From Candidatus Hodarchaeota archaeon (GTDB lineage: Archaea; Asgardarchaeota; Heimdallarchaeia; Hodarchaeales; Hodarchaeaceae), in assembly GCA_048887065.1 (NCBI GenBank), contig JBHLKC010000002.1, forward strand, positions 1 to 57,060: 57,060 nucleotides of DNA, in the 5' to 3' direction. Of this stretch, positions 18,069-35,514 are shown piece by piece; the stretch's first letter is position 1; each line of letters opens with the position of its first letter. Made by a program: the position numbers and the translations under genes. Below the pieces are notes generated by a model. The model had not been told where the DNA came from, made no database searches, and worked only from the letters and a program-made list of their open reading frames with translations.

Positions 18069-18821
18069 TTAATAATTATGAATTTTATTATGGGAAAACT
18101 CTTCTCTTATTTCTAATGCTTTCTCAACGTTGTCAGTAATGATTCCATTTACTCTTCTTTTGAATGCTGACTTTAAGAGCTGTTTACTATTAGCTCCGTA
18201 AGGATTTGTTAAAATTCCAAGCTTTCTTGATTTTTCAATGCACTTGTGAGCGTAATATTTGTGAATTGAGCTTAAAATTTTCGGCACGTTTCCATAATAG
18301 GGATGTATTGCATCACATCTTAATCGATGAGCTTTTTTCAGTTTTCCCCTAGCAAATTCGAATAGCAGTCCCGTTGGAATCTCAAAATCAAATTCTTTTA
18401 TTTTTGCTAATTGAGAAGAGTGAAAAGAAGACACAATAATATTATTTGGATCTTTTATAAGGTTAAATTGGTTTATAATATCAACTAATTCTTTCACACC
18501 ATTCTTTTTTGTCTTTAGTTCGATATTCAACGTCGTTTTGTTGCCAAAATTTTCTAGTATTTCCTCCAAAGAAGGAATGTAAACACCTTCAGATAATTCT
18601 ATTGATTTTAATTCGTTTAAGGGGATATTTTTAATGAAATCAGACCGACCTAACTTTGATAATGAATCATCGTGGTAACAAACAAATTTCCTATCTGCTG
18701 TAAGGTGAACATCAAATTCTAGCCCATCAGCTCCGAAATGGATCGCTGTTTGAAATGCTGGCAAGCTATTTTCAGGATCTCCGTTTACTAAATATCCTCG
18801 ATGAGCAAGAATTAAAGTCAT
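18069..18821 (-). CDS. Glycerophosphodiester phosphodiesterase
   Basis: ILAHRGY...ENSLPAFQTAIHFGADGLEFDVHLTADRKFVCYHDD is the GDPD signature. Confidence 0.8.
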   Translation of the reverse strand: MTLILAHRGYLVNGDPENSLPAFQTAIHFGADGLEFDVHLTADRKFVCYHDDSLSKLGRSDFIKNIPLNELKSIELSEGVYIPSLEEILENFGNKTTLNIELKTKKNGVKELVDIINQFNLIKDPNNIIVSSFHSSQLAKIKEFDFEIPTGLLFEFARGKLKKAHRLRCDAIHPYYGNVPKILSSIHKYYAHKCIEKSRKLGILTNPYGANSKQLLKSAFKRRVNGIITDNVEKALEIREEFSHNKIHNY

Positions 18822-18898
18822 ATTAGCAGACCATTTAATATCAAAATAATATTAATAAGATAACTCTCTGAATTATAAGAAAGAATTTCAGATCAGTA

Positions 18899-19279
18899 TT
18901 ATTCTTCTCTTAATCCATATTCGGAATCAGCTCGTGGGATTTCAATCTCAAGAGCCTCCAATTCTTTCTTATACCTCTTTGCTAGAGGACGAATCTCATT
19001 TTTCTTATAACGATAAGTAATATCAGCTCTATCACCGGAGAGGCTATCCCAAGGTTCAACTAATACTACATCATTTATAGAGATTCGATATCCACGTCGG
19101 AAACGTCCAGGAATACGCGCAGTGCGTTTTACCTGATCAGTACACAGTACTTCCATTCGACGAGCGCCTAAATTTCGAATAACTACTCCGATAACCTCAT
19201 TCCCAGTAGGGTAGCGTGTCCTTCGTACAATTCCTGTTGGTGGACTGTCGTCCCTTCTTCTTTTATTCTTTTTACTCAT
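18899..19279 (-). CDS. eif1A: Translation initiation factor aIF1A
   Basis: S1-like OB core GNEVIGVVIRNLGARRMEVLCTDQVKRTARIPGRFRRGYRISINDVVLVEPWD. I prefer the start at MSKKNKRRR (ATG 19277-19279) over the track's upstream alternative start at 19330. Confidence 0.85.
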   Translation of the reverse strand: MSKKNKRRRDDSPPTGIVRRTRYPTGNEVIGVVIRNLGARRMEVLCTDQVKRTARIPGRFRRGYRISINDVVLVEPWDSLSGDRADITYRYKKNEIRPLAKRYKKELEALEIEIPRADSEYGLREE

Positions 19280-19636
19280 GATATTTTTCCTCTTTGGGAG
19301 GGAAAACCTGAATAAGATCAGATTAATCAATTAGATACACTTGAACACGGTCAAACTCACGAGGCTGGAAAAGTTCTTAGAGGTAAGAATCCTTATTGCT
19401 TCGAAAAGAAGACAGGACAGCCCAAACGCGAGAAACAATCTTCATGTACCCCTTCCCTTGTTAAACATATGATTTAGAATCATTTGAATTAACTAGGGGC
19501 AGAGAATGACATTCAGATCCGTTAGATAAATGCCGAAAAAACTCCTTCAAATATGTTTGGGAAAAGTCTTCTTGAATACTTAAGGTAAGTCCGAAAATGC
19601 TAAATGTATAATCATTGTTTCCTTTACTGACAGCTG

Positions 19637-20257
19637 ATGGATACCAATAGTTTTAAGCAAAAACCTTTGTTTATTGTTGTCGATGGAGGGGATGGATCTG
19701 GAAAAGATACTCAGGTCAAGCAAATAGCTCGTTATTATTTAGCTAAAGGTTATAAGAATATTCGAATAAGAAGTCATCCTACGAATGATAATCCTTATGG
19801 CCAGAGAGCCAAGATTGCATTAGAAGAAGGGAAGGGATCAAAAGGGTATATTTTGGCAACAGTTTTTTATACACTTGATGTTATTAGAAGTTTAGTAAAA
19901 TATTACCGTCGTAATGTCAATGAAGTCCTGATATTTTCACGTTATCTCCTTGGTGTTTGTTACCTTCCGTCCTCCCTCATTTTTTTTGGTTATTCCTTTT
20001 TCTCAAGAATTTTACCTTCCAGTCGTTATTTTTTCTTTTTAGATGTCTCTCCAGAAATTGCTAAAGAACGAATTTCAGAAAGGGGAGAAAAAATGGAAAT
20101 GTTTGAAAAAATGTCTAGATTGAGGAAAATGAGAAAAAAAATGCAGCTAGTTACGAGTCGAAAAGAATGGTTTTGCATTGATGGTGATGGTTCTCCAAGA
20201 GATGTTTGGCTGCAAATAAAGCATATTTTAATCGCGCTTGATTCACAGACTACTTGA
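19637..20257 (+). CDS. tmk: Thymidylate kinase-family P-loop kinase
   Basis: FIVVDGGDGSGKDTQ P-loop and the FFLDVSPEIAKERISERG block typical of dTMP kinases. The middle of the protein is divergent. Confidence 0.6.
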   Translation: MDTNSFKQKPLFIVVDGGDGSGKDTQVKQIARYYLAKGYKNIRIRSHPTNDNPYGQRAKIALEEGKGSKGYILATVFYTLDVIRSLVKYYRRNVNEVLIFSRYLLGVCYLPSSLIFFGYSFFSRILPSSRYFFFLDVSPEIAKERISERGEKMEMFEKMSRLRKMRKKMQLVTSRKEWFCIDGDGSPRDVWLQIKHILIALDSQTT

Positions 20258-20268
20258 GGTAAAAATCA

Positions 20269-21576
20269 TTGAGAAAAAGGATAAAAAACTCAAGGATCTT
20301 TTTTGGATTATCCTCCTTTCAAATGCTAGCAATGTTTCGACGTGGCCTTTTTTACAGCTATTTATCAATCTATCTACGCTATTTTCTAGAATTAAGTGTT
20401 ACTGAGACCACTCTTTTTGCGACCTTCCCAATGATCCTGAACGTTAGTTTTCAGATGGTTGTTTGGGGTGTTTTATCGGATAAGCTTCAGCTCAGACGAA
20501 CGTTGGTTATCAGTGGAGAAATCTTAGCAGGTATAGGAACATTAATTGTTTTCTTCACGCATAGATTTACCTCTGAAAAAATCCTTGCTGGATGGATAAT
20601 AATTATTGGATTCTCTGTTATAGAAATTTTCTGGAGCATGAGCAACACTGGGTGGACCGCACTTATATCAGATTTATTTCCTTATGAAAAAAGAAATACA
20701 GTTCAAGGGAAGCTATCTAGTGTTGGAGGACTGGGACGGATCTTTGGTGTGTTTATTGGTGGCCTGCTTTATGATGGTTTACAACTTAAATATGAAGGTT
20801 GGGGTTTCTATGAAGGAAGTTTATTTTTCGTAGCCGCTTTGGTTATGTTTATCTCAACTATTCCTTTAATTTTCATTCCTGAAGGAGGTATATATCGCGA
20901 CTTTCATGAAAAGAAAAAGATTTCTCCTCAGCTCACTGAAATTGAATCACCTAATCTGGTATTCATTTTTTTTCTGATAGCAATGATTTTTATCAATTTT
21001 GGCCGTAATTCGATTGCTATTATTTTACCTCAATATTTATTCCTTGATTCAGGATTTGGAGTTTCCAGTGAACTATTAAGCTATATAATTAATACTCAAT
21101 CTGTAGCAATAATTCTCACAGGTCTTGTAGTTGGACAAATAGGGGTTCAATTTGGAAATGGCAACACTTTATTTCTTGGTACAGGAATTTCAATAGCAGC
21201 TCTTTTCATTTTTGCCTTTTCACCCAATATTATGGTAATTTTTCTTGCTAGTTTTCTTCGTGGTGCTTCTGATGTTATTATTTTAGCTTCTGCATACACT
21301 TTTGCCTCTAAGTTAATTTCCGAAGAAAAACGCGCAAGATTATTCGGAATTTATAACGCTACATTTTTTCTATCTTGGGGATTAGCTGGAACATTAATTG
21401 CAGGTCCTATTGTTGATATTCTGCTTGCCAAAGGCATAGAGGAAGTAATGTCATATCAGGCAGCATTCGTTACAGGAGCATTATGTAATTTTATAGGGCT
21501 TATTATATTGGGATTTCTCCTCCTAAAGCTTCATACTTTCAATAGATCTTCTGTAGACAAGTCCCAAGTAATATAA
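20269..21576 (+). CDS. MFS transporter
   Basis: About 12 hydrophobic helices with a central loop, and an LSDKLQLRRT loop 2-3 motif (MFS D-R/K-x-G-R-like). TTG start. Confidence 0.75.
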   Translation: MRKRIKNSRIFFGLSSFQMLAMFRRGLFYSYLSIYLRYFLELSVTETTLFATFPMILNVSFQMVVWGVLSDKLQLRRTLVISGEILAGIGTLIVFFTHRFTSEKILAGWIIIIGFSVIEIFWSMSNTGWTALISDLFPYEKRNTVQGKLSSVGGLGRIFGVFIGGLLYDGLQLKYEGWGFYEGSLFFVAALVMFISTIPLIFIPEGGIYRDFHEKKKISPQLTEIESPNLVFIFFLIAMIFINFGRNSIAIILPQYLFLDSGFGVSSELLSYIINTQSVAIILTGLVVGQIGVQFGNGNTLFLGTGISIAALFIFAFSPNIMVIFLASFLRGASDVIILASAYTFASKLISEEKRARLFGIYNATFFLSWGLAGTLIAGPIVDILLAKGIEEVMSYQAAFVTGALCNFIGLIILGFLLLKLHTFNRSSVDKSQVI

Positions 21577-21706
21577 AGAATGTTAAAATCTGTAAAACGA
21601 TGCCAAAGAATCTCTTCATGAATTTCTGATATATTTTAGTGGACAAAAATGTGTCATCCACATATTCGAAAATTTATTATTCTCCAAATTTAGAAGATCT
21701 GTAAGA

Positions 21707-23032
21707 ATGTCCTCCATCGATATTTCTTTAGCAAATGATCCTTTCCAACGATGCTTTGCTTTCGCTCCTGGCGAGAAAATGCGAATTCAAGTGAAATTTG
21801 AAGACCCTATACCAGAAAGGTATCGTTTACAAATTTTAGATCAGAAGAATAACTCACGTCTAAATCGATATGGAAAGGGATCAAAAGATGGAATAATACT
21901 AGACTGGCCTATTCCTCCAACGATAAAATCAGATCATTTAGGAATCTGGTATGTTAAAATAGAAGACTATCGAAAAGATCAGTTGATATTAGAGTCTTTT
22001 TTTTTTGTTGAGCAACAACAGAGAATCGAAGCACTATTGTTGCCTTCTGGCCCCGCAATTGAGGCTGAAGAGATTTCATCCGCTTACGAAGAAGCAATTA
22101 GAGTCGCAACTGAAACAGAGATTTCTTTACCTGAACATATGAAGGCTGAAAAAGATATTATTAGTCAAATTCCTGTTACAGTTATTAAAGGCCTTGGAAA
22201 AACATACGCTACTAGATTAGAAAAGATTGAAGTCTATACAATTTATCAATTCTTTCATTACTCTGATCGTATTGGACTTGCAGAAATCATGAGGGTGAGC
22301 GATAATAGGCTTGAAAAAATGCTTAACGAGGCTGAGCTACTTGTAAAACAGGAGATATCAAGACCTCGAGTTTCACTAGACGTACAAGTCTCTGCTGGTC
22401 CTATATCTAAAGCTGATTTGTTAGATCTACCTGGTATTGGTATTAAATCCGTTGAAAAACTAGCCAAGTTAGGTATCAATACTAGATCGGATCTTATTGA
22501 CTATAAGGATGTAGAAACACTAAGAAAGACATTAAGAATGTCGCAGACCCGTCTTGTGAAACTTTTTAGTTTGATTGGTAGAACTGTATCAATTCCTGAG
22601 ATTTCTGAAATTAAACCAAAAGATCCTTTCAATCAACCCATCATCAAAGTAAGGGGGATTGGAGCAAAAACTGAAGATTTTTTAAAGTCGAAAGGGATTA
22701 TAACAGTAAAAGATTTACTCGACTCATCATATTCTTCATTTAAAGGGATCACTGGAGAAAAAACTTATATAAAATGGATACAGAACGCAAAAATATATAC
22801 TGGTCAGAAATTAGAACCTGAAAGACTTCACATTAAACCAACCGCCACCTCTACTGATGCTCTGCTAGGGATTCCTGGTATTGGCCCACGATCTGTTGAG
22901 AAACTATCTAAATTAGGGATAATGTCTATATCCGATCTAGTAAACTTTACAGATATGGAGACATTACGAAAAACATTAAGAATGTCTCTTCCTAGACTTC
23001 AAAACCTCTTAGCTTCTTTAGAAAACCAATAG
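21707..23032 (+). CDS. Hypothetical protein: N-terminal beta-rich domain plus four helix-hairpin-helix motifs (DUF4332-like)
   Basis: HhH motifs: IKGLGKTYATRLEK, LPGIGIKSVEKLAKLGI, VRGIGAKTEDFLKSKGI and IPGIGPRSVEKLSKLGI. An internal module of about 55 aa is duplicated. Confidence 0.6.
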   Translation: MSSIDISLANDPFQRCFAFAPGEKMRIQVKFEDPIPERYRLQILDQKNNSRLNRYGKGSKDGIILDWPIPPTIKSDHLGIWYVKIEDYRKDQLILESFFFVEQQQRIEALLLPSGPAIEAEEISSAYEEAIRVATETEISLPEHMKAEKDIISQIPVTVIKGLGKTYATRLEKIEVYTIYQFFHYSDRIGLAEIMRVSDNRLEKMLNEAELLVKQEISRPRVSLDVQVSAGPISKADLLDLPGIGIKSVEKLAKLGINTRSDLIDYKDVETLRKTLRMSQTRLVKLFSLIGRTVSIPEISEIKPKDPFNQPIIKVRGIGAKTEDFLKSKGIITVKDLLDSSYSSFKGITGEKTYIKWIQNAKIYTGQKLEPERLHIKPTATSTDALLGIPGIGPRSVEKLSKLGIMSISDLVNFTDMETLRKTLRMSLPRLQNLLASLENQ

Positions 23033-23246
23033 ACTAGTAAGAAATATCCCTCTGATTTTCATCATATTACTGAGGATAGAAATAATACTTTACTGTTTAA
23101 TGTCGGATTGGTGATCTACTGTTTTAAATAAGTAATCCTTATTTGAATGAGTCTTCTTACTGTTATTTCAATCTTAACAACTTAATGGTACTTTTTTGAA
23201 GTGCCTTAAGTGCGCATAAAAACCAAAGCGCTGGAGTGTTAATATA

Positions 23247-25466
23247 TTGTCAGAGTTATATGAACAGATTGAAAGTAGCGATAAGATTACTCGTGAAAGA
23301 GCTGCAAGGTCTCTTGGAGACGTTAGAACAAAAACTGCACTTCGAGCATTATTAGATACTGCTAAAAATGATCCAGAAAAAGATGTTAGGAAAGCAGCTA
23401 TCGATTCAATTGAAAAGCTTGGCGATCCTGAAGCTATTCCAACCCTAGAACAGATTTCTAATGATGATAGAGATCGGGGTACTCGTAATAAGGCAAAAGA
23501 TGCTGCAAACACCATTCGGATATCAGGATCCCCTCTTCCTGAAGGAGAGGATGTTGGATATTCTGCCGCTGATGCTGAGCGAGCTCGAGCGGACGCACGC
23601 GCGTTAGAGGGGCATGAAGCAGGACAAGCTGGATTGTATGTTAAACTTCAAGAATCCTTGAAATACAGGATTGATCGTGATAACTTCTTGATTGATGAAG
23701 AAGGGACTATAGTTGAGTCCATGCGAGGAACTGGAAGAATCGAAGTAAAAAACACAGGAAATCAGGATCGAATCTGGGCAATTGATGCAACCCTTAAAAA
23801 TGTTGATGAAGTCACCTTCCCTCGTGAAGAAGATCAAGAGATAGCTGTATTCGGCAATTCATTTGCTATAAAGGAACTAAACCCCCAAGCAATTCAGGCT
23901 GTTCCTTTTGAGTTTGAAGTAGGTGTGCCAAAAGTAAAGCTTATTGAAGATTTTTGGGATCTTGAAAAACCCGATTCGCCTCCAATTTTTTCTCGTGGAG
24001 AAACAACAGGAATGCGTTTCACATTAAAATTATCTAATGAAAACAATTTTGCTATAAAGAATGTGATTCTTAAAAAATATCTTGGAGTCTCCACTTCAGT
24101 AAGTAATTTTCAAACAACTCAAGGTGAAATATCTTCAGACTCTGATGAAAAAGGAGATTTAGTTCTATGGAGAATAAACCAAGTTCCTGCTAATGGAGAA
24201 GCTGAAGCGAGTTGTGAAATGAGTGTCATATTATCAGAGGAGACAATTGAACCTTATAGTGTTGGAGACACCATAGTAACGTACCAAGCTTTGGAAACAA
24301 GTCTTTCTGGGTTGAATCTAGAAACAATTACTGGGAGCTCCTCTGTATTCCAGTTTATCTCTCGAGAGGAACAAGAAGAGAGTCCTGGGGACTTTGATTG
24401 TCAATTTGAATTAGAAAACACAAGCGAGTTCGAGATGGATCTCAAAGAGATTCGTATTTTCGAGGGAGAATTATCTGAAGGAAATATCAGATTGGAGTGG
24501 CTTGGAAAGGACTTTCCTGAAGAAGAAAGATCGATTGATCCTGGGGAGACTTTCACACTAGACCCATGGACGATCACCGTTGAAGAAGATGGTGTCATAC
24601 CTCAATTCGGACGAGAATTAGATTTATCTGTCAAGTATTTATTTGATGCAGAAGTTAGTGCTGAATGTGTCCTTCCTGGATATGCCTTACCATTCCTTGG
24701 CATTGAAGCCTCAAAGACTTTTGAACCACTCACAATACCTTCTTACCGTCGTACTGAAATAATGACTGAAAACCTAATCAAAGCTTCTGGAAGCACTGAA
24801 ATCGCGTATCTCCAAGTCCAAGATCAAATACCAGTTGAGTTTGAAGCACCTGAAAAGGATTCTGTTGTAATAAAGAAAAGAGACGAACAATTATTCGATT
24901 TTGAGTTTGAAGTACGTGAGGGGAATTTAATTATAACAATGGAGCATCTAGAAGCTACCTCTATTGGTACTCTTAAACAAGATGAGGAAATGAGTGTTAA
25001 ATATCCATACTACGCGACTGCAACTCCTGATGAGGAATTTATGGGTAATGTAACTATCTTAGCAAACATCTATCCACAAGTTAAACCAGTCACTACTGAA
25101 GCTGAAGCGGGACCGATAAGTGTAATCCATGAACGTAGGAAAATTAAGATCGGAAAAATGGTCAGAAGCACGATGAACGAGGATCTCAATGAATATGAGA
25201 TCACTATCCGAGGGGAGAACGAGGGTACAGCAATAATTAGAAATGTAGAAATCAGTGATTATCTGCCTCCAGGTTTTGAATTAGCCTCAGAAACCGAAGA
25301 AGAACCAGTTGTTGGATATGAGGAGGCCTCTTCGGTTAAGGGAGGTACAGCACTAAGATGGATTTTTACCGAAGTCAAACCTGATCAAAAAGTCCAGATT
25401 AGATTTAAAATTAGAGCTCCAGGCGACCATGACCCGAAAGATGTTTATAAAATGCTCTTAGGGTAA
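23247..25466 (+). CDS. HEAT-repeat (PBS-lyase type) protein with about five tandem beta-sandwich (DUF11/CARDB-like) modules; no signal peptide
   Basis: RERAARSLGDVRTKTALRALLDTAKNDPEKDVRKAAIDSIEKLGDPEAIPTL HEAT-like repeats. The C-terminal module (VEISDYLPPGFEL...VQIRFKIRAPG) is DUF11-like. TTG start. Confidence 0.6.
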   Translation: MSELYEQIESSDKITRERAARSLGDVRTKTALRALLDTAKNDPEKDVRKAAIDSIEKLGDPEAIPTLEQISNDDRDRGTRNKAKDAANTIRISGSPLPEGEDVGYSAADAERARADARALEGHEAGQAGLYVKLQESLKYRIDRDNFLIDEEGTIVESMRGTGRIEVKNTGNQDRIWAIDATLKNVDEVTFPREEDQEIAVFGNSFAIKELNPQAIQAVPFEFEVGVPKVKLIEDFWDLEKPDSPPIFSRGETTGMRFTLKLSNENNFAIKNVILKKYLGVSTSVSNFQTTQGEISSDSDEKGDLVLWRINQVPANGEAEASCEMSVILSEETIEPYSVGDTIVTYQALETSLSGLNLETITGSSSVFQFISREEQEESPGDFDCQFELENTSEFEMDLKEIRIFEGELSEGNIRLEWLGKDFPEEERSIDPGETFTLDPWTITVEEDGVIPQFGRELDLSVKYLFDAEVSAECVLPGYALPFLGIEASKTFEPLTIPSYRRTEIMTENLIKASGSTEIAYLQVQDQIPVEFEAPEKDSVVIKKRDEQLFDFEFEVREGNLIITMEHLEATSIGTLKQDEEMSVKYPYYATATPDEEFMGNVTILANIYPQVKPVTTEAEAGPISVIHERRKIKIGKMVRSTMNEDLNEYEITIRGENEGTAIIRNVEISDYLPPGFELASETEEEPVVGYEEASSVKGGTALRWIFTEVKPDQKVQIRFKIRAPGDHDPKDVYKMLLG

Positions 25467-25470
25467 TTCA

Positions 25471-25494
25471 CTTCTTTCTTTCCTTCTTTTTTTT
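25471..25494 (+). terminator. Pyrimidine/T-rich tract (T8 run at 25487-25494) just after the stop of the HEAT-repeat gene
   Basis: cttctttctttccttctttttttt begins 5 nt after the TAA. Archaeal terminators are oligo-T tracts. Confidence 0.4.
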
Positions 25495-25626
25495 ATTCAG
25501 ATTTGACGGTTTCCCACTCCGACATACTTTTTTAGGATGTTCAATCAGGCTTTTTAAAAACCTGCCAGGCCATAAAATATTTAATGATAGTTTAAAAGAA
25601 ATACATGATTCATTGGAAGGAAAGAT

Positions 25627-26388
25627 TTGAAAAGACTAGTAGTGGACTTTGAAAAGGTTAAATCTCTTTTACTAAGTTCGCAGGATATGAAGGAGTTTAT
25701 TCGTTCAAAAGAGGACGAAGAAGAAGCAATGTTTTTATTTTGGGCATTGGATAATCTTGAAAGGAAAAATAAAGAATTGTCATTAGATGCTAAGAGCCAT
25801 TTGAGAAAAAATTCTGAAATTTTGAGGGAAGCACAAGAATTCATTATAACTGAAGATTTAGCTTCAAGTATTAACAAATTCTCTCATGGATTCATTCTTG
25901 GAGTATTAGAATTTGCTGCAAGGACAAAGGAAGCCCAAATCGAACATTACTCTGAGTACAAAGAATTAGTTAATAAAATTGAAACTATGAAAGAATTAGG
26001 ATTTCCTAGTGAGAAATTTCAAAAGTATTGGGAGGAAACCATAATAGGGATCAAAGAAATACAAGGTTATATGACGTCACGTTCTGATGATCATTTTCCT
26101 GTTCTTACTCGACTGATTAAGACTCAGAAATATAAAAATCCTTCTAAAACACTCAAAATGCTGCGTAAGGGAAGAAGCGATAATGTTGTGTTTCAGATAA
26201 TAGCTTCTGTTCTGCATTCAAATCCAATTTTAGATGAAAGATTAAAGGAACTGTGTATAGAGAAGTCTATTTCTTTAGATCATGTTAAAGATCAGTTGAC
26301 TACGGTCTTACGATTATTAGAAAATGATTCCCAAGATAAAAAAGTACAGGAATACTGCAGATTATTACTTGGGCATAAACAAAAATAG
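25627..26388 (+). CDS. Hypothetical helical protein
   Basis: 253-aa ORF with a TTG start. Charged and helical by composition. No recognisable motif. Confidence 0.5.
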   Translation: MKRLVVDFEKVKSLLLSSQDMKEFIRSKEDEEEAMFLFWALDNLERKNKELSLDAKSHLRKNSEILREAQEFIITEDLASSINKFSHGFILGVLEFAARTKEAQIEHYSEYKELVNKIETMKELGFPSEKFQKYWEETIIGIKEIQGYMTSRSDDHFPVLTRLIKTQKYKNPSKTLKMLRKGRSDNVVFQIIASVLHSNPILDERLKELCIEKSISLDHVKDQLTTVLRLLENDSQDKKVQEYCRLLLGHKQK

Positions 26389-26398
26389 GGGAATACAT

Positions 26399-26842
26399 TT
26401 GAAATTCTATCTATGTGGTGCTATTAGAGGAGGAAGAAGCTTTCAATCAATTTATCAAATCATTCATGAATATCTCGAGAAAAAAGGCCATAAAGTTCTG
26501 GATCATCATATTTCATCTCCGGATGTCATTGAGATAGAAGATAAAATGACTGACAAAGAAATTTATAATCAAGATATTAAATGGTTAAAAGAGTGTGATG
26601 GTGTTATTGCAGAGACCTCATTACCATCATTAGGAGTTGGTTATGAAATTTCATATGCTCTCGATTCTCTGCATAAACCAGTCTTAACCCTGTACAATAA
26701 ATCAAAAACACCGATTTCAGCAATGATTTCAGGAAATACCTCAAAATATTTGACTTTATGCTCATATAGCGATACCTCAGAGCTTCTTAGGCATATTCAA
26801 CAATTTATTGAATATCTCGAAGAAACTCTGAGATTAGAATAA
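26399..26842 (+). CDS. 2'-deoxynucleoside 5'-phosphate N-hydrolase (DNPH1/Rcl-like; nucleoside 2-deoxyribosyltransferase fold)
   Basis: KFYLCGAIRGGRS...CDGVIAETSLPSLGVGYEISYA matches the DNPH1 pattern (YFCGSIRGGR...EVTQPSLGVGYELG). I prefer the TTG at 26399, preceded by GGGG, over the 26324 start, which overlaps the upstream gene. Confidence 0.7.
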   Translation: MKFYLCGAIRGGRSFQSIYQIIHEYLEKKGHKVLDHHISSPDVIEIEDKMTDKEIYNQDIKWLKECDGVIAETSLPSLGVGYEISYALDSLHKPVLTLYNKSKTPISAMISGNTSKYLTLCSYSDTSELLRHIQQFIEYLEETLRLE

Positions 26843-26847
26843 ACAGA

Positions 26848-28428
26848 TTAGAAATCAGGGATTAATCTTCCCTGACCATTTACTAACATATTGTATGTTT
26901 TTTGAATTCGATCCCAGTTTTCTTCCCTATCTAAAGCCCAATGACGTCCAATAACAGAAACAAATTTAATCGTTCCTAATTCTTTTGCTTTTTGTTCCAG
27001 CTTATTAACATAGTATGCCCCTGCTTCTGGTTTTTCTCCTCTTCGTCCTAATAATCCATGAATGTAAACTCGAGGAAGGTTTGACTGAACAGATAATTCC
27101 ATTAACGACTCTAGAAATTTAATGGAACCATGGCTTGAGAAGAAACTAATGATACTAAGTAAATGTAAGGCAGAATTATTCTTCTTAACATAATTAATTG
27201 CATTTAGAAAAGCAGAATTTCGAAAAAAATCACCATTCTCAATAGCATCAAAAATTTTTACACGATCGCTTATAATACGTCGTCCAACACCCATATGAAG
27301 GTGTCCTATTTCGCTATTCCCAACAGTACCTTCGGGCATCCCTAATCGTGTTCCAGAAGCGACTAATGTTGTAAAAGGATAGTTAATTTTTAATCTATCC
27401 ATATTTGGGGTACCAAATTCTTTGTACAAATTCCCCCAGGAATCAGGATTATAACCCCAGCCATCTAGTATTAAAAGTAAGATTCTTTGGCTTTTTAGAA
27501 CGCTTTCTCCAGAAATTAGACTTTCCCCTTCCATTTCTGACGGTTTATTCATCTCAAGGATCTCTAATATTGTTGGCCCTATATCAATAAGAGATCCACC
27601 TTCTCTTAATTTGATCTGATTTTTCTTATGGGAGATTATAAGAAATGGAACAGGATTTGAAGTATGTCCTGTATCAATTGCCCCACCAGGATATAACCAA
27701 GATTCCGCAAGTCCATGGTCTGCTGTTACTAATACAGTATAATCTGTTATAAGTGCAGATGCAACTATTCTATGGAGTTGTTCATCTACTGTTTGTATTG
27801 CTTTTTTAATAACCTGTTTATCTTCTATATGCCCCATTACATCGCAAGGTGACAAATTTGTTATAATTAATTCATGACTTCCTTCATTCATCTTATTGAT
27901 TGTAGTTTGAGCTACATCGTAAGCTCTCATTTCTGGATAGTTGGCTAAATTTTCGGTTTCAATAGATGGAATTATTATTCTTTCTTCATTTTTATATTGT
28001 TTATGTTGCTTTCCATTAAAAAAATATGTTAGATGAATAGCTTTTTCACTCTCTACGCACTTTAAAACGCGTTTGTTATGTCTTGATACGAATTCAGTTA
28101 AATTATTGGAAATTTTTCCTATCGGAGGGAAAGCAACATCGACGGATAAGTTTGGGTGATATTGAATCATTGTTGAGACGTAAAGATTAAGCGGTTTTAC
28201 AAGGAAATGGGTAAAATTTTCTTCTATTAGAGCTTGTGTAAGTTCTATCTCTCTCTCTCCACGAATATTTGCAAAAATTAAACCGTCATTATATTTTATA
28301 CGACCAATTGGATTCTGGTGGTTTGGATCAGCAAGAATACTAGGCTCTAATATCTCATCATCTTCCCCATTTTTATAAGCATTAGCAATCCCGCACGCAA
28401 GAGGAGTATTATACCTGTTTTCACTCAT
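26848..28428 (-). CDS. gpmI: Cofactor-independent phosphoglycerate mutase (bacterial GpmI type), circularly permuted
   Basis: All GpmI blocks are present once, in rotated order. FANIRGERE, ESEKAIHLTYFFNG, CDVMGH, TADHG and GHTSNPVPF come first. LILDGWG, GNSEIGH, VYIHG and GRHWALDREENWDR come second. Confidence 0.8.
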   Translation of the reverse strand: MSENRYNTPLACGIANAYKNGEDDEILEPSILADPNHQNPIGRIKYNDGLIFANIRGEREIELTQALIEENFTHFLVKPLNLYVSTMIQYHPNLSVDVAFPPIGKISNNLTEFVSRHNKRVLKCVESEKAIHLTYFFNGKQHKQYKNEERIIIPSIETENLANYPEMRAYDVAQTTINKMNEGSHELIITNLSPCDVMGHIEDKQVIKKAIQTVDEQLHRIVASALITDYTVLVTADHGLAESWLYPGGAIDTGHTSNPVPFLIISHKKNQIKLREGGSLIDIGPTILEILEMNKPSEMEGESLISGESVLKSQRILLLILDGWGYNPDSWGNLYKEFGTPNMDRLKINYPFTTLVASGTRLGMPEGTVGNSEIGHLHMGVGRRIISDRVKIFDAIENGDFFRNSAFLNAINYVKKNNSALHLLSIISFFSSHGSIKFLESLMELSVQSNLPRVYIHGLLGRRGEKPEAGAYYVNKLEQKAKELGTIKFVSVIGRHWALDREENWDRIQKTYNMLVNGQGRLIPDF

Positions 28429-28645
28429 TTTCTGTCAAAGATCGGTAGAAAAAATAATTTATGATCATTACGATGGAAAATAATAATCCTAACTTCAAAA
28501 ATTTATTCTTACGGTTTAATGTCAGAAAAACTTTTATTCAGGAGCATAAATTAGTTTATCAAGTAATGACAATAATAATTAGATGTAATCGCACTATTTT
28601 ACAAGTGGAAATTCCAAATTAATTATATAATTGGATGTAGAAAAA

Positions 28646-29107
28646 ATGTTGAAGATTGGAGACGTAGCGCCTAATTTTGAGACTGAAACTTCATCAGGTC
28701 AACCTATGAGTTCAGAAAAATTAGGAGGCCAGAGATTTGTCCTATATTTCTATCCTAAAGATAACACTCCTGGATGTACAATAGAAGCTTGTTCCATCCG
28801 AGATAATTACCAATATTTTCTGAGTCAAAATATTCCTGTATTTGGAGTATCTGGAGGGAGTTCACAATCACACCAGAAGTTCATTGAAAAATATAGTCTT
28901 CCTTTTCCTTTATTAATGGATGAGAAACTAGAAATAGCAAAAAAATTTAATGCTTATAAAAAAGGGAATCGTGTGGCACGCATTACATTTCTAATCGATG
29001 AAAATGGTATAATTGAGGGTATTTTTGGAGGGGATCAAGGAATTGAAAAGGTCAAAACAAAGGAACACGCCCATCAGATAATTAAATTCTGGAAATTAGA
29101 GTTGTAA
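28646..29107 (+). CDS. bcp: Thiol peroxidase / peroxiredoxin Bcp
   Basis: MLKIGDVAPNFE...YFYPKDNTPGCTIEAC. I prefer the ATG at 28646 over the TTG at 28631. Confidence 0.85.
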   Translation: MLKIGDVAPNFETETSSGQPMSSEKLGGQRFVLYFYPKDNTPGCTIEACSIRDNYQYFLSQNIPVFGVSGGSSQSHQKFIEKYSLPFPLLMDEKLEIAKKFNAYKKGNRVARITFLIDENGIIEGIFGGDQGIEKVKTKEHAHQIIKFWKLEL

Positions 29108-29352
29108 ATTATTATCTTTAATTTTCATGCATCTATAGACTTCTATTTCGCTTTTGTATTTGTAAATCTTTTGAAATCACCACCATTCTACTTCAATTTT
29201 AAGGAGAATTGATTTTCCCTAGAAATCATTTTAGTAATAAAAAACTAAAGATAAATAAGCATGGATTTACTTGTTATCATAAAATCCATTGGTTAACCCT
29301 TTTAAACAGACAAAAAAGCTTTGATTGGAGCAAAAATGAATTTTGAAGTGAC

Positions 29353-30444
29353 TTGAAATTGATAGATAGAGACGTCCTATTCAGTGTTTTTGATAAGAAA
29401 AGAGGAGCGCTCCCAATATTTTTTGAGGGGACTCTTTCAACTGATGAAGCACAGAGAATTGCAATGCGTTCTCAGATGACGCTGTCTATGATGTCATCAG
29501 CTGATTTGGAGACAGCAGAGGCAATATTACCATTTTCTAGCTTAAATAGAATTGGTTTTATCCTTTTATTTCAGATTCAACAATTAGATGCAGAAGAACC
29601 TAAATGTGTAGCCTCATTATCATATCTAGTGCCTCAGGATCAGCAGGTTTTTCTATATAATAAGGTTCCATTCTTGAAGTTTAAAGCTGAAGAGATTGCA
29701 GAACACATCAAGCAGAATTTTATATATTCAAGCACCCTAACCTTCCCTCCCGATTTGGAAAAATACGTCTCAAATTGGCGAGTGACAGAGAAAGAAGCAA
29801 CAGCTGAGATTCAAATCATTGAAAGGAGGGTAACCTTATCTGAGAAAAAAGAAGGGGGTAGTATTGATTTCTTTTTAAGCCAAGTTAAGAAAAATGAAGA
29901 CCGTGTTTTGGGAGCACTCTATCGAGGAAATCCTATATTTGTAACAGGTTCATCTAATGTAATAGTTGACTTGATAGTTCATAGCTTGGATCTTTTTGTC
30001 CCTCATGCTAGCTTAAGAAAAGTGGGTTACACTACAACAATGATCGATCCTTCATATGCTGATATTATAGGAATTTCAAAAAATCTAGTGAAGAATTATC
30101 CTAAACATATACTAGTGGATTTGGATAAAAGACAAGTCAAACATGGAGATCCTTGCCCATATTCCAAAACTGTAATAAAACAACTGCGAAAAAATCCAGA
30201 TAGAGCAAATGAAATTATAAAAGAATCCACAAATAGACTTCTCAAAGTTGCAAGTTTGTTAATTGATTTGTTTTCACAACCTGAAGACCAGCGTGGGGAC
30301 AAACTTGAGAATATTCAGAAAGAATATGACTCCTCTCTAGTGTGGATTGCTGCTGAAATTGCTGCCCAACGTAATCCTTTAATTAGTGAAATACTTTTAC
30401 AACAGGTATCCAATCGATTCTTGGATTGGATGGGAGATTTATGA
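29353..30444 (+). CDS. Hypothetical protein with an N-terminal longin-like domain, an alpha/beta core and a helical tail (candidate DENN-like architecture)
   Basis: The secondary-structure pattern and the motif NPIFVTGSSNVIVDLIVHSLDLFVPH...ADIIGISKNL...HILVDLDKRQV resemble the cDENN consensus. TTG start. The functional call is inference only. Confidence 0.5.
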   Translation: MKLIDRDVLFSVFDKKRGALPIFFEGTLSTDEAQRIAMRSQMTLSMMSSADLETAEAILPFSSLNRIGFILLFQIQQLDAEEPKCVASLSYLVPQDQQVFLYNKVPFLKFKAEEIAEHIKQNFIYSSTLTFPPDLEKYVSNWRVTEKEATAEIQIIERRVTLSEKKEGGSIDFFLSQVKKNEDRVLGALYRGNPIFVTGSSNVIVDLIVHSLDLFVPHASLRKVGYTTTMIDPSYADIIGISKNLVKNYPKHILVDLDKRQVKHGDPCPYSKTVIKQLRKNPDRANEIIKESTNRLLKVASLLIDLFSQPEDQRGDKLENIQKEYDSSLVWIAAEIAAQRNPLISEILLQQVSNRFLDWMGDL

Positions 30445-30695
30445 ACATAGACCTTTGTCTAGTGTACATACGAATGATAATGCATTGAACATAGCTCTAG
30501 CAGACTTTGGTTTAATAATACACAGTTAAACTATAAGCTAAGATGTATTAATAATGGATTTATATTAATTTCACTTATTAATTCAAGAGATTTTCACAGA
30601 TACTTTGAAAAATGTTAAAAATATTTCTAAATAAAGTTAAAAGACCTAGGAATTCACATATTCATTCTCAATAATTAGAAGTTATAAAAAGAAAT

Positions 30696-32195
30696 TTGTC
30701 ACTGAAAGTAAAAGAACCAAGAAAAGTGATAGCTATGACTTCCATTCGAAGTTTAGATGATCTTACTGTTGAATTTGAAGAGTTTACTATTCAATTGAAC
30801 AAGCAGATGTTCAATCAATATGCTGGGCTTCAATATGAAAAAGATAAGATGGAGACTATTTCTAAAACGTTGGTAGAGCTAAGTTCTGAATTCTTAAACT
30901 CGTATAAAGAACCGAGAAACCTGTACTTAGAAGCCATTACAACAATCGCCGATGCTCGAAAACTCCCTTTAACTTTAGAAATTTATGATAAGCGAATGAA
31001 AGTTATATCGACAACTGCTTTTAAGATCCACGAAAAACCAGTTAATTGGGGTTCATGGAGGCAATTTAATGCTCAAACTTCAAATTTTATAAACAGAAAA
31101 CTAGTATTCGACGAATTTATTATTAAGGCTGAAGAACTTGGATCAATGATTACTGAGCGATTTGATATTTCTCGTCAAGTTCATTCTCTTTATGAATCTT
31201 CTCCTTTAGAAATTTATTTAGAAAGAGAGCAAGTTTCATATGAGAAATTAAGGGATTTTATTACTATTCTAGGTGATGGTGCAAAAAATCCTTTTTTAGC
31301 AGCAGCAGAGCATTACGCTCCAGAAATTCTTGGAAAAGATAGTTTTGAATATTTTGACGATTTTTATGTAGCTAGAGGGAGAATATATTCCCCTTTAAAC
31401 CCTCATCTTGAAAAAAAGAATCCTTTGAAAGTTATTGACCACGTTTTATCGAATTGGGGTTTTGGGGATGATCTTAAGAGAATAAAAGTCGATAGTGAAG
31501 ATAGGGAGAAAAAAACTCCCTCTGCTTTCTGTTTTGGGATTCAAATTCCAAATGATGTTCGTGTGATTTTTAAGCATGTGTCTCCATTTAGTGATTTTAT
31601 TAGTGTATTTCACGAATTTGGCCATGCAATTCATTGCACTTCTGGCAATCCCAGTGATCCATTTTGGACGAGATACCTAATTCCGATGAGTGTAGCAGAG
31701 ACTTTCTCAGTTTTTATTGAAATGTTAATGGAAAATCCTATATTCTTAAAACAAGAGATGAAATTGGCAGAGGAAGTGATTCAAGACATTCAGGATAGGC
31801 GTCACTTCATGAATTTGTTTTTCTTAGTTTTTTATGCATCAAACTCATTGATGAAACTTGAGTATTGGAAGAATAATTACTCTCTTGAGGAGGCATCTTC
31901 CCGTTTCCAAGAACTAACAAGAAGGTTTTTTTGGGAAATACCTGGAAACTATTGGCTTTTACACCATGTAATGCCAGATTATGATATCTATGCTCCTTCA
32001 TATATTCTTGCGAGTATCCGTGTCAAAGAATGGATTGAACAGATGGTCGACGAATATGGGGAAGAATTTTGGAAAGATAAGCAAGCAGGAACCGTATTTC
32101 GGGATCTTGCAGCTACTCGTGCATCGTTTGATTTATCAGTATGGGATCTAGATCCGAAACCATATCTTGAGGAACAATCAAAATTCTCGTTTTAA
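30696..32195 (+). CDS. M3-family zinc metallopeptidase (oligoendopeptidase F-like)
   Basis: VFHEFGHAIH HExxH motif with a downstream SVAETFSVFIE glutamate block. The start is TTG at 30696 or ATG at 30735. Confidence 0.7.
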   Translation: MSLKVKEPRKVIAMTSIRSLDDLTVEFEEFTIQLNKQMFNQYAGLQYEKDKMETISKTLVELSSEFLNSYKEPRNLYLEAITTIADARKLPLTLEIYDKRMKVISTTAFKIHEKPVNWGSWRQFNAQTSNFINRKLVFDEFIIKAEELGSMITERFDISRQVHSLYESSPLEIYLEREQVSYEKLRDFITILGDGAKNPFLAAAEHYAPEILGKDSFEYFDDFYVARGRIYSPLNPHLEKKNPLKVIDHVLSNWGFGDDLKRIKVDSEDREKKTPSAFCFGIQIPNDVRVIFKHVSPFSDFISVFHEFGHAIHCTSGNPSDPFWTRYLIPMSVAETFSVFIEMLMENPIFLKQEMKLAEEVIQDIQDRRHFMNLFFLVFYASNSLMKLEYWKNNYSLEEASSRFQELTRRFFWEIPGNYWLLHHVMPDYDIYAPSYILASIRVKEWIEQMVDEYGEEFWKDKQAGTVFRDLAATRASFDLSVWDLDPKPYLEEQSKFSF

Positions 32196-32218
32196 GAAGA
32201 TTTACACTAAGAAGTGAG

Positions 32219-34810
32219 TTAAAGAGTAAAAATATTCCAATCTAACTGTTCCATGTCGCTAAGTATGGCTGTGAATTCAGTTAAATCATCTGGTATAGTA
32301 ACTGATCCAAAATTTATAATTTCATCGATTAAGACAAGACATCCCTCAGCATTCATATAAATTGAATTTGTAGCTATATTGGTAATGTTTCCTTTCACAA
32401 GATTTCGCCAGTTTGTTATTGCGGTCTCATTGAGCAGATGATTAGAAATCCCTGAAAGTATTTCATCTGTAGTATTAGCTGACTCTTGACACATGGTAAA
32501 ATTATTTATTGCGGTGTCATAGTCAGTACTGTTGAAAACAGGAGCATTTAAAGCTGCATTGAGACTATTAGTCCCCATTGAGAAGAATTTTACTGCATTT
32601 GAAGTTTCGTTCAATGCCAAAACGTAGCTTTCTACTAAATCAAATCTTTCTGAAGTGGAATTGGTGAATTCCTCGAATTCATCAAGCAGTTTATTTAATC
32701 CAGCAAATTCAAGAGGTTCTTGGGAAGTAATAACATCACTCATATTATTCAAGCTTGTTTGCGTCGCGGCCAGATAACTAGAGGTGTTATGGAGGCCCAA
32801 GTCGATATTAGACCAGATAGGATCATAGATATTACTTACGTCGGAAAAATTAATGTCATCCATTAGCTTCATAGTCTTGTTTAATGATCGAAACATATGT
32901 GTCGCATTTCGTACTGAAAACATCATATGCTTTGTGACTTGATGAAGATTAATAATAAAATTAACCAAATCCTGAATAGGTATCAAAGGATCCTCTATAT
33001 CAGGAAAGCTTCCAATGTCTATATCATAAAGTCCTTTTGAGGCATTAAAGTCTTTTTCTGCTTCCTCTAGCAGTTGTGACTCAAAATTATATTCACTAAG
33101 ATCATCCAGTACTAGTGTGAGCTTGTAAGTTGAATTTATCCAAGGGACAACTTCATTAGTCGTATTCACAAGAATAGGTAATCCAATTTCAAGTTCTGTC
33201 AACACATTAGAGATATCTGCAAAGATAGAGTAATTCAAAGTTTGTTGAACTGTTCTAACGAGTGAAAGAAGAGGTTGTTGAGCATCTGTGAGATTATTCA
33301 CACCAAGTTGAAGGATACTAAGTGCATCCTTCATAGATGAATTGTATTTCGGGGAAATCTGGGCACCAAGTCCTCCTTCGGTAATTTTTTCCATTGTTTG
33401 AATTAATATCAAAAATGATTGGTTGAATCCTAATTGAAGATTAAAATAAGCCCAGGATAAAGGGTAAAAATGAGGTACCGCCTCCGCTAATACATTAGTT
33501 AAAGTCAATATATTCGGAAGATCTTTTAGAGGTATTCCTGCTACATTTGGAATAATATATGGCAGAATAAGAGCAATTAATGGATTATTACCAAACTGTC
33601 TAAACGAATTACTGGCTAGTTTCAAATGTTGTTTAGTAGAGGCAATTAGACTGAGTAAATCTTCATAGGTTAAATCGAGGTTGTTTAAATATTCAGGCGA
33701 GAATATTTCTGCTGTTTCAACTAGCCCTATACTTGCATAAAGAGTTCCTTCTGTACCCTTTCCTATGGCATGATACCCTAATGGAATTATTATTATGAAA
33801 ATTAACAAAAGCGCTGAAAATAACGTTCTTAATAACATAGTACTCTTCCATTTTCGTTCTGAGATTTGAAAAATCCCTGTTAGACTAACCCCGATAGTAA
33901 AAGGTATGAAAATTATTATAATTGCGTCTAAAAAGGGAATTAGAAGCTGTAGAAGGTCAAATCCCAATATTACTCCCTGTCCTGTACTTTTAACCAAATC
34001 TTGATTTCTTAAAATGCCTATCAGATTCTGACGTGATATGTTATTAAAGATCCCCCAAGGATTTAATCCCTGAAAGACACGAAAATGAATCATTGTTTCA
34101 ATGGAAAGATAACTGATTAATGCAGATATTAATGATAAAGGCGCAAACCTTATAGAACGTTTAATTAGTGGATATAGGCATACAAGAATTGAAAATATAC
34201 CCAATGTGATAACATATGACAGCATCGAATCTAAAAACTGAGAAGGAATAATAAGAATGAATAATATCGGGATAATTATACTTAAGCTAAAAATAATTGA
34301 TTGACCTTCAATTCTATCCAGAAAGGGAACATATTTTTCCTTTTTAACCAATTCTTCCATGTTTGACGCATGATAAATTGTTAGAATATTTCCTAGCCCT
34401 TTTACAGTGGGTGAATCTGGTTTGATTATCTGTATGAGGATATTAATTAAAGCATCAGTACCCAGATAGTTATAATTGGCATCCAAACCTTCTAAAACTA
34501 AATTTTCAAATTTGTTCGAAAAGATCAATGAAATTGGCCCTATCTTTTCAAAAACGAGTATTATTACATGGATTTCTACATTTTCATGCAGATCTGAAGT
34601 CCTTTTGAACTTCAGATCTCTTAACATTCCAGAATAAAGTGAATAGTGTTTAGATTCACTGTGGGTCTGTAAGGCCCTAAGGAATTTATCTTTAGGAAAG
34701 CTTGGAAATTCAACACTTGAGTCTCGTAAAGAATTGACTGAAAACTGAAAAGACTCTGATCGTTGAGCAGCTTGCAGCTTAAATTTAATCTCCCATTCAT
34801 CCTTATTCAT
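32219..34810 (-). CDS. Large membrane protein: about 170-aa cytoplasmic N-domain, a polytopic TM block, and an N-x-S/T-rich extracytoplasmic C-terminal domain of about 400 aa
   Basis: Hydrophobic helices between roughly aa 170-450. By eye, about 19 N-x-S/T sequons in the last ~400 residues. No recognisable family. Confidence 0.7.
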   Translation of the reverse strand: MNKDEWEIKFKLQAAQRSESFQFSVNSLRDSSVEFPSFPKDKFLRALQTHSESKHYSLYSGMLRDLKFKRTSDLHENVEIHVIILVFEKIGPISLIFSNKFENLVLEGLDANYNYLGTDALINILIQIIKPDSPTVKGLGNILTIYHASNMEELVKKEKYVPFLDRIEGQSIIFSLSIIIPILFILIIPSQFLDSMLSYVITLGIFSILVCLYPLIKRSIRFAPLSLISALISYLSIETMIHFRVFQGLNPWGIFNNISRQNLIGILRNQDLVKSTGQGVILGFDLLQLLIPFLDAIIIIFIPFTIGVSLTGIFQISERKWKSTMLLRTLFSALLLIFIIIIPLGYHAIGKGTEGTLYASIGLVETAEIFSPEYLNNLDLTYEDLLSLIASTKQHLKLASNSFRQFGNNPLIALILPYIIPNVAGIPLKDLPNILTLTNVLAEAVPHFYPLSWAYFNLQLGFNQSFLILIQTMEKITEGGLGAQISPKYNSSMKDALSILQLGVNNLTDAQQPLLSLVRTVQQTLNYSIFADISNVLTELEIGLPILVNTTNEVVPWINSTYKLTLVLDDLSEYNFESQLLEEAEKDFNASKGLYDIDIGSFPDIEDPLIPIQDLVNFIINLHQVTKHMMFSVRNATHMFRSLNKTMKLMDDINFSDVSNIYDPIWSNIDLGLHNTSSYLAATQTSLNNMSDVITSQEPLEFAGLNKLLDEFEEFTNSTSERFDLVESYVLALNETSNAVKFFSMGTNSLNAALNAPVFNSTDYDTAINNFTMCQESANTTDEILSGISNHLLNETAITNWRNLVKGNITNIATNSIYMNAEGCLVLIDEIINFGSVTIPDDLTEFTAILSDMEQLDWNIFTL

Positions 34811-34974
34811 TAATTAGACCTCTAATGAACCTTTCGTAGATATCTTTTTTCGCGAGAAGAAGAAATCAATCCTGCATTTATTTGTATTGTTGAATATAAA
34901 TCACGAATATTTATAAAAGAGTTTATCTCCTTCTTACGTCAGAAATACTTCTATCTTTTAATGGAGCTGGAACC

Positions 34975-35514
34975 TTGTCTAAAAAGAAAGCAAAAGGAGC
35001 GAAGTTTGCATTCAAATTATTACTTCTGGGGGAACCTGAAGTCGGGAAGACTTCCTTAATAAAGAGATATGTGGATGATTTTTTCGAAGAAGGATATCAA
35101 ATAACGCTTGGTGTCGATTTTCTTTCTAAAACAGTAGTCATGGAAGACCCTAAGACAGGAAAAGAGCAAGAACTCAGTTTCCAGATTTGGGATGTCGCAG
35201 GTCAAAGTTCTTTCACAAATTTTCGCCACTTGTATTTAAAGAAAGCTCATGGGGTTTTTCTTGTCTTTGATTTGAACAGACCTGATACATTTGATAAATT
35301 AGATCGCTGGTTTGCTGATGTTAAAGAGCAGTCACCAACAGCTAAGATTATAGTAATTGGAAATAAGAATGATATCACCGAGGAGTTATCTTTCACAAAA
35401 GAAGAAATTCTCAAACGGTTCCAGGCAAAGCAATTTTACACGACTTCAGCTAAGACTGGTGCAAAGGTTCAGGAAGCATTCATCCAGATGGGGCAATTGA
35501 TATTAGGTGAGTAG
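34975..35514 (+). CDS. Rab/Ras-like small GTPase
   Basis: G1 LLGEPEVGKTSL, G3 WDVAGQ, G4 GNKND, G5 TSAK. No C-terminal Cys prenylation motif. TTG start. Confidence 0.85.
   Translation: MSKKKAKGAKFAFKLLLLGEPEVGKTSLIKRYVDDFFEEGYQITLGVDFLSKTVVMEDPKTGKEQELSFQIWDVAGQSSFTNFRHLYLKKAHGVFLVFDLNRPDTFDKLDRWFADVKEQSPTAKIIVIGNKNDITEELSFTKEEILKRFQAKQFYTTSAKTGAKVQEAFIQMGQLILGE

Follow-up and report, generated by a model that had tools for sequence, protein, structure and literature searches.

Can a cofactor-independent phosphoglycerate mutase (iPGM), a textbook two-domain glycolytic enzyme and anti-parasite drug target, occur naturally with the halves of its chain exchanged, and would such a protein still work as a mutase? 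The question is raised by one gene in the 57,060-nucleotide stretch analysed here (the window), positions 1 to 57,060 of contig JBHLKC010000002.1 from a Candidatus Hodarchaeota archaeon. The gene occupies positions 26848-28428 on the minus strand and encodes 526 amino acids (aa) followed by a stop codon, as assigned from the list of open reading frames (ORFs) and from matches in Pfam, NCBIfam and the Protein Data Bank (PDB). A preceding sequence-only reading described its product as a permuted bacterial-type enzyme (GpmI), with every conserved block present once but in rotated order, and with a breakpoint near residue 210 of the Geobacillus stearothermophilus protein, inside the transferase domain.

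Segment order, domain layout and predicted fold

Comparison with PDB sequences bears out this description. Two non-overlapping phmmer matches to the G. stearothermophilus iPGM (1EJJ) were obtained in rotated order: query residues 314-520 correspond without gaps to 1EJJ 4-210 (i-Evalue 2.8e-49), and residues 6-305 to 1EJJ 213-509 (i-Evalue 3.5e-50). The matches end at residue 210 and resume at 213, and both domains of the bacterial-type enzyme are covered over their whole length. A collinear alignment to GpmI, which would have spoken against permutation, did not occur: all 11 full-length iPGM sequences in the PDB match the query in two stretches, and none (0/11) is collinear with it. A tblastn search of the window with the Geobacillus iPGM gave matches at 28413-27514 and 27498-26854 only. 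No internal repeat was detected in the query by self-BLAST, each block being present once.

The Pfam profiles iPGM_N (PF06415; 156.7 bits) and Metalloenzyme (PF01676; 184.7 bits) are each matched in two stretches, with both scores above the cut-offs. In NCBIfam, TIGR01307 scores 417 bits, summed over two stretches, against a cut-off of 330.65.

The arrangement of domains along the rotated chain was established by residue mapping on 1EJJ, together with the phmmer and Pfam matches. In the Geobacillus enzyme, we take the phosphatase (Metalloenzyme) domain to comprise residues about 1-76 and 311-511, and the transferase (iPGM_N) domain residues about 77-310. The second part of the transferase is now N-terminal in the query, as residues 6-102 (28123-28413, on the minus strand like all segments listed here, boundary approximate); it corresponds to Geobacillus 213-310 and carries R56, R59 and E58, the equivalents of R261, R264 and D263. 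It is followed by the C-part of the phosphatase, residues 103-305 (27514-28122; Geobacillus 311-509), with K129, D196, H200, D237, H238 and H255. The new junction, connecting the ancestral C-terminus to the ancestral N-terminus, is formed by residues 306-313 (27490-27513), which remain unaligned between the two phmmer domains. Next comes the N-part of the phosphatase, residues 314-386 (27271-27489; Geobacillus 4-76), carrying D322 in the motif LLLILDGWG, and the nucleophile S372 and H376 in the motif GNSEIGH. The first part of the transferase, now C-terminal, comprises residues 387-520 (26869-27270; Geobacillus 77-210) and carries H433, R463, R495 and R501. The chain passes between domains at hinge 2, located between segments 6-102 and 103-305, and at hinge 1, between segments 314-386 and 387-520; both crossovers of the canonical enzyme are therefore retained despite the permutation.

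In canonical GpmI/GpmM (G. stearothermophilus 1EJJ/1O98, Staphylococcus aureus 4MY4, Caenorhabditis elegans 5KGL), which has the same Metalloenzyme and iPGM_N domains and is about 35-38% identical to the query over both halves, the transferase is inserted between the N- and C-parts of the phosphatase. In the query, on the contrary, the transferase is split and the phosphatase is contiguous, as the sequence-only reading had proposed. The ancestral termini, both in the alkaline-phosphatase-like phosphatase domain, would have been joined by a few residues, and new termini would have opened in a transferase-domain loop near Geobacillus 210-213. The phosphatase would thus become contiguous (about residues 103-386), and the transferase would be assembled from both ends of the chain (residues 6-102 and 387-520). 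A linker of about 10 aa had also been proposed. The junction does exist, but it is shorter than that: only residues 306-313 are unaligned, and across the family the distance between the equivalents of residues 509 and 4 has a mode of 3-4 residues. Such a short connection suggests that the two native ends are near each other in the fold and were fused with hardly any linker.

An AlphaFold2 model, computed with a 52-sequence family alignment as input, has a mean predicted local distance difference test score (pLDDT) of 94.2 and a predicted template modelling score (pTM) of 0.87; the fold is predicted with confidence. Blocks of residues at the junction have pLDDT values of 87 (301-310) and 94 (311-320). 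A Foldseek search of the PDB with the model disclosed 22 significant matches, all of them iPGMs, each extending over ~260-305 columns with template modelling (TM) scores of 0.38-0.47. Alignments limited to about half of the chain are to be expected of a sequential aligner meeting a permuted protein of two segments. None of the solved iPGM structures has the segment order of the query.

Homologues, synteny and family history

An unusual segment order, and nothing more, could point to an assembly misjoin or to two incomplete gene copies fused in this contig only, and both had been named in advance as outcomes that would overturn the permutation. A protein search yielded 4689 matches at E <= 1e-10. 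The best 120 of these came from NCBI, JGI, ENA and Logan assemblies, and a single local alignment spans 95-100% of the query in each, except for one 411-aa partial sequence at 78%. When the Geobacillus iPGM was compared with these 120 sequences by BLAST, its N-terminal half was located downstream of its C-terminal half in every case (120/120) and with the same breakpoint; orthologues therefore show the order that the sequence-only reading had expected of them. One permuted homologue, UCG04654.1 (68% identity), resides on the complete 4.94-Mb Heimdallarchaeota chromosome CP070695.1, and 14 ORFs across positions 18069-35514 of the window are collinear with that chromosome, at amino-acid identities of 46-83%. 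Misjoin and local fusion of gene fragments are excluded by the identical order and breakpoint in homologues from many independent assemblies, by synteny kept on a complete chromosome, and by a self-comparison that is free of repeats and reveals a single copy of each segment; the chance that either occurred is practically nil. All segments of the parent fold occur a single time, in a rotated order common to orthologues, and on sequence comparison and modelling the gene is a genuine natural circular permutant of the bacterial-type GpmI lineage, with a product predicted to be folded.

The syntenic block also includes genes for a HEAT-repeat protein of 739 aa (23247-25466) and for a protein of 863 aa that matches no Pfam family (32219-34810), a Peptidase_M3 gene (30696-32195), and a 179-aa ORF (34975-35514) whose counterpart on CP070695.1 matches the Arf, Ras and Roc families of small GTPases. 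A possible relic of duplication in one relative (locus L011), in which Geobacillus residues 186-218 appeared to be represented at both ends, was discarded, because the alignment proved to be a weak extension in which hardly any residues are identical.

Judging from sequence relationships, the query belongs to a family of permuted iPGMs in bacteria and Asgard archaea that is large and old and has apparently not been described before. The closest 23 homologues (63-98% identity) are from genomes named Heimdall-, Hod-, Hermod- or Promethearchaeota, and the rest of the best 120 (about 50% identity) are from Deltaproteobacteria, Aminicenantes, Chloroflexi/Anaerolineae, WOR-3, Syntrophaceae and others. 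In a library of representatives clustered at 50% identity, 9380 matches were found at E <= 0.001 and 1475 at E <= 1e-30. The top 150 representatives comprise 12 permuted, 135 canonical and three partial sequences, and all 12 permuted ones break near Geobacillus 210-217.

For phylogenetic analysis, permuted sequences were rotated to the canonical order, and the alignment of 155 sequences was used to construct neighbour-joining trees with 40 bootstrap replicates. A permuted clade of 21 sequences that includes the query, a subclade within it characterized by the motif GRRG (described below), and an Asgard group within this subclade were each recovered in 40/40 replicates. A single clade comprising all permuted sequences appeared in only 1/40. 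Four sequences (P0123, P0131, P0133 and P0232) are permuted, keep canonical motifs and are placed among canonical enzymes. Two of them, P0133 (L090:3556-6626 and L091) and P0123 (L092:4041-5585 and L093), were each found on independent contigs and retain DGRD and GVHSH. The permutation may have more than one origin at a single loop, or the four may be slowly evolving early branches misplaced by the distance method.

The Asgard group is nested among mostly bacterial GRRG-type sequences, at a node without bootstrap, and this nesting suggests an old transfer from bacteria to Asgard archaea. The original source of the gene would probably be bacteria, where the same subclade is widespread, and in the Heimdall/Hod-type Asgard lineage it would have been inherited vertically as a housekeeping gene. 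In another setting, a permuted iPGM unit was observed at about residues 3853-4370 of a single putative 5027-aa ORF that fills a 15.6-kb Logan contig (L094:128-15211).

Active site, gene neighbourhoods and function

Two other members of the same superfamily were considered as possible identities of the protein. The archaeal-type iPGM (ApgM; PF10143 and Metalloenzyme) is the recognised cofactor-independent phosphoglycerate mutase usually expected in archaea, and shares with the query the alkaline-phosphatase-like core and the class of reaction. This identity was rejected: no Pfam match to PF10143 was found in the query, and ApgM models score far under their cut-offs (TIGR00306, 30.4 bits against 320; NF003104, 31.8 bits against 489). 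Phosphopentomutase (DeoB) was dismissed as well, the equivalog scoring 54.1 bits against a cut-off of 254.

The active site was inspected in an alignment of the query and 119 permuted homologues with the rotated Geobacillus sequence. The seven metal-site residues of the query, D322, S372, D237 and H238 (Geobacillus D12, S62, D444 and H445) and D196, H200 and H255 (D403, H407 and H462), are invariant in all 120 sequences, and these sets of ligands match those given for the C. elegans iPGM. In Geobacillus numbering, H66, H123, R153, R185, R191, R261, R264 and K336 are equally invariant. Except for H66, these are residues that we take to bind the substrate in the Geobacillus enzyme. The metal ligands, the nucleophilic serine and the Arg, Lys and His ligands of the substrate are hence identical to those of canonical GpmI, in accord with the earlier statement that most catalytic and metal residues are retained.

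Other motifs differ from those of the canonical enzyme. The motif GRRG (G461 R462 R463 G464; 27037-27048, minus strand) replaces the DGRD loop, SSHGS (residues 431-435; 27124-27138, minus strand) replaces G-V-H-S-H with H433, the equivalent of H123, retained, and glutamate stands in place of D263. Both motif changes, from DGRD and from GGVHSH, had been noticed before and are confirmed by alignment. GRRG is common to the query and its 119 closest homologues, with G461 and G464 conserved at 100%, while D151 and D154 are conserved at 100% and 99%, respectively, among 130 canonical sequences. Only about ten positions are conserved within each of the two groups and differ between them: D263E, G409E, A24L, Q77S, L116I, V122S, D151G, G152R, D154G and M189L. 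V122S, M189L and the loss of Asp154 (to Ser or Gly) occur in every member of the permuted clade supported in 40/40 replicates, and D263E in nearly all of them. D151G and G152R define the subclade of the query, G152R being found also in two other members. Being fixed across the lineage, GRRG and SSHGS represent signatures and not decay.

A catalytically dead or regulatory pseudo-enzyme, in which only the fold is kept, could be proposed from the loss of two otherwise near-invariant aspartates. This is very improbable, because 44 columns, including all metal ligands and the nucleophile, are invariant in the 52-sequence family alignment, and conservation of this kind from bacteria to Asgard archaea indicates selection on catalysis.

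The reading that we favour, at a probability of roughly 0.7, is that of a functional Mn-dependent mutase interconverting 3-phosphoglycerate (3PG) and 2-phosphoglycerate (2PG), in which the chain is re-threaded and the loop on the glycerate side altered; its activity and substrate are predicted from sequence. In outline, the mechanism would be as in canonical iPGM. The binuclear site (D322, S372, D237 and H238, and D196, H200 and H255) would accept the phosphate of 3PG or 2PG onto Ser372, and the glycerate would be held in the closed cleft by H433, R463, R495, R501, R56, R59 and K129. It would then turn and be re-phosphorylated on its other hydroxyl. Owing to the remodelled loop (DGRD to GRRG, with V122S and D263E), the hold on the hydroxyl and carboxylate of the glycerate probably differs in detail.

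Several observations weigh against a plain 3PG/2PG mutase. The substitutions D151 to Gly, D154 to Gly and Gly152 to Arg remove two acidic residues and add a basic one, a net change of +3 in charge, in a substrate-side loop that bears Arg153, presumably a substrate ligand. The sole weak block of the AlphaFold2 model, residues 461-470 with a mean pLDDT of 69, includes GRRG. The equivalog model NF003897 scores 327.5 bits, summed over two stretches, against a cut-off of 862. With probes for gap, pgk, tpi and eno taken from a Pfam-verified Bacillales operon, a glycolytic neighbour was detected at 27 of 69 canonical loci and at none of the main-clade permuted loci, a comparison confounded by taxonomy. 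Finally, sister-subclade genes, named DGRS-type after their loop, are accompanied by genes for ApgM, HAD phosphatases and a kinase, a hint that the function of this sister subclade is not redundant.

DGRS/SSHG-type proteins (e.g. Butyricicoccus MCI6719492.1) share with the query the breakpoint near 210-217 and the well-supported permuted clade, and differ from it in keeping Asp151 and in their cluster setting. One such locus (L088:66-4873) carries, on one strand, genes for a NagD-like HAD protein, the permuted iPGM, ApgM, a PRK-family kinase, LacI and KduI. In two Anaerolinea DGRS-type loci ApgM is located immediately downstream and a HAD gene upstream, and a HAD gene is also directly upstream in Butyricicoccus pullicaecorum and in a Clostridiales metagenome-assembled genome. 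The recurrent cluster of HAD, permuted iPGM and ApgM genes was recorded at L088 and at L007:5715-8478, L009:6263-10773, L010:7176-9539 and L011:7234-9578. The two cofactor-independent types of phosphoglycerate mutase are thus adjacent genes in some bacteria, which suggests an unrecognised phosphoglycerate-related pathway. Among GRRG-type genes, a 208-aa His_Phos_1 gene (of the cofactor-dependent phosphoglycerate mutase superfamily, dPGM) begins at the stop codon of the permuted gene in two Chloroflexi/Anaerolineae genomes (L002:9587-10213; L008:877-1485). HAD, ApgM, PRK-family kinase and His_Phos_1 genes were found at none of the 69 canonical loci.

Other neighbourhoods are shared with canonical genes. 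In Deltaproteobacteria, GRRG-type genes adjoin PCMT, a LysM/M23 peptidase gene and a radical-SAM gene, and in another GRRG-type lineage an M23 gene is directly upstream. PCMT adjoins canonical gpmI in two Methanotrichaceae loci, and M23 genes do so in Legionella, Chromatiales and others. Common PCMT and M23 neighbours indicate a similar niche for the two types. Furthermore, P0133, a DGRD-type permuted gene, overlaps the stop codon of pgi, and permuted topology is therefore compatible with a glycolytic role; P0133 has the same breakpoint as the query and differs in its canonical motifs and its grouping with canonical enzymes.

The permuted gene of the window is solitary: on one side it is convergent with a Nuc_deoxyrib_tr-family gene (26324-26842), on the other divergent from an AhpC/TSA peroxiredoxin gene (28631-29107). 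Neither a further iPGM gene nor any gene of the ApgM, His_Phos_1 or HAD-like type was found in the window.

These observations bear on the main rival, in which the SSHG clade, the Asgard protein included, would be a neofunctionalised paralogue. It would keep the phosphoserine and binuclear-metal chemistry, as a mutase or a phosphatase, and its more positive pocket would accept a different phospho-acid, probably more negatively charged, or it would serve a dedicated step in a side pathway with ApgM, HAD, His_Phos_1 and a PRK-type kinase. In its favour are the loss of Asp151 and Asp154 and the gain of Arg462 in the glycerate-side loop, along with V122S and D263E, the HAD, ApgM and kinase clusters of DGRS-type relatives, His_Phos_1 immediately downstream at the two GRRG-type Chloroflexi loci, the main-clade loci devoid of glycolytic neighbours, and one divergent member located behind an ABC importer. 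On the other hand, all phosphate- and carboxylate-contacting residues of canonical iPGM are invariant, the TIGR01307 cut-off is passed, and PCMT and M23 neighbours are common to the GRRG type and canonical gpmI. In addition, the clusters belong to the sister subclade, while Asgard and most GRRG-type loci look like housekeeping ones. We therefore consider a distinct enzyme unlikely, though a serious alternative to the 3PG/2PG mutase; if it were true, permutation and functional change would have gone together.

Some features of these loci were recorded in addition. Read from its first start, the Nuc_deoxyrib_tr-family gene overlaps the 253-aa ORF before it (25627-26388) by 65 nucleotides; its Heimdall orthologue is called at 143 aa, and the true start in the window is thus probably further downstream. 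The divergent permuted sequence P0168 (L089:1217-7572), with the loop FNRHG, ends a LysR and ABC-importer cluster comprising SBP_bac_1, a fused permease and ABC_tran-TOBE_2, a position that hints at action on an imported phospho-compound. In Desulfofervidus-like sequences (L085-L087:1-6044), the start of the permuted iPGM lies within the end of a very large ORF (~2400 aa), in which a PPDK_N (PEP-utilising) domain was found along with P-loop kinase-like matches. Butyricicoccus pullicaecorum, a carrier of the HAD-linked permuted gene, is a cultured species.

Permuted iPGMs in databases and in Asgard phylogenies

Sequences of the permuted family are already public under automatic names, and the permutation itself has apparently not been described. 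In agreement with the sequence-only reading, which knew of no such report, searches of open-access full text for permutation in iPGM, in phosphoglycerate mutase or in the alkaline phosphatase superfamily disclosed no description of a permuted iPGM. It is not mentioned in iPGM-focused work (a 702-genome survey, a 338-sequence analysis and the C. elegans structures), nor in recent papers on the evolution of glycolysis that discuss Asgard GPMI (including PMC11976288). The phrase “scored twice” in Foster et al. 2010 was considered as a possible trace of split matches and set aside, as it concerns duplicate genome sequences. Because the two permuted halves cannot both be placed by ordinary alignment, automated names waver between “phosphoglycerate mutase” and “alkaline phosphatase family protein”.

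The relevance of the family extends to the evolution of protein topology and to phylogenies connecting Asgard archaea and eukaryotes. A deep and widespread permutant, in which the “inserted” and the “host” domain trade roles, is a natural test case for folding, for the mechanics of the hinges and for the insertion of domains. The fixed GRRG loop, together with the HAD, ApgM and kinase clusters of the sister subclade, possibly reflects unrecognised phosphoglycerate-related biochemistry. Trees containing Asgard GPMI could be distorted if permuted members are not rotated beforehand, and such trees have served as arguments that Asgard archaea contributed to eukaryotic glycolysis (PMC11976288).

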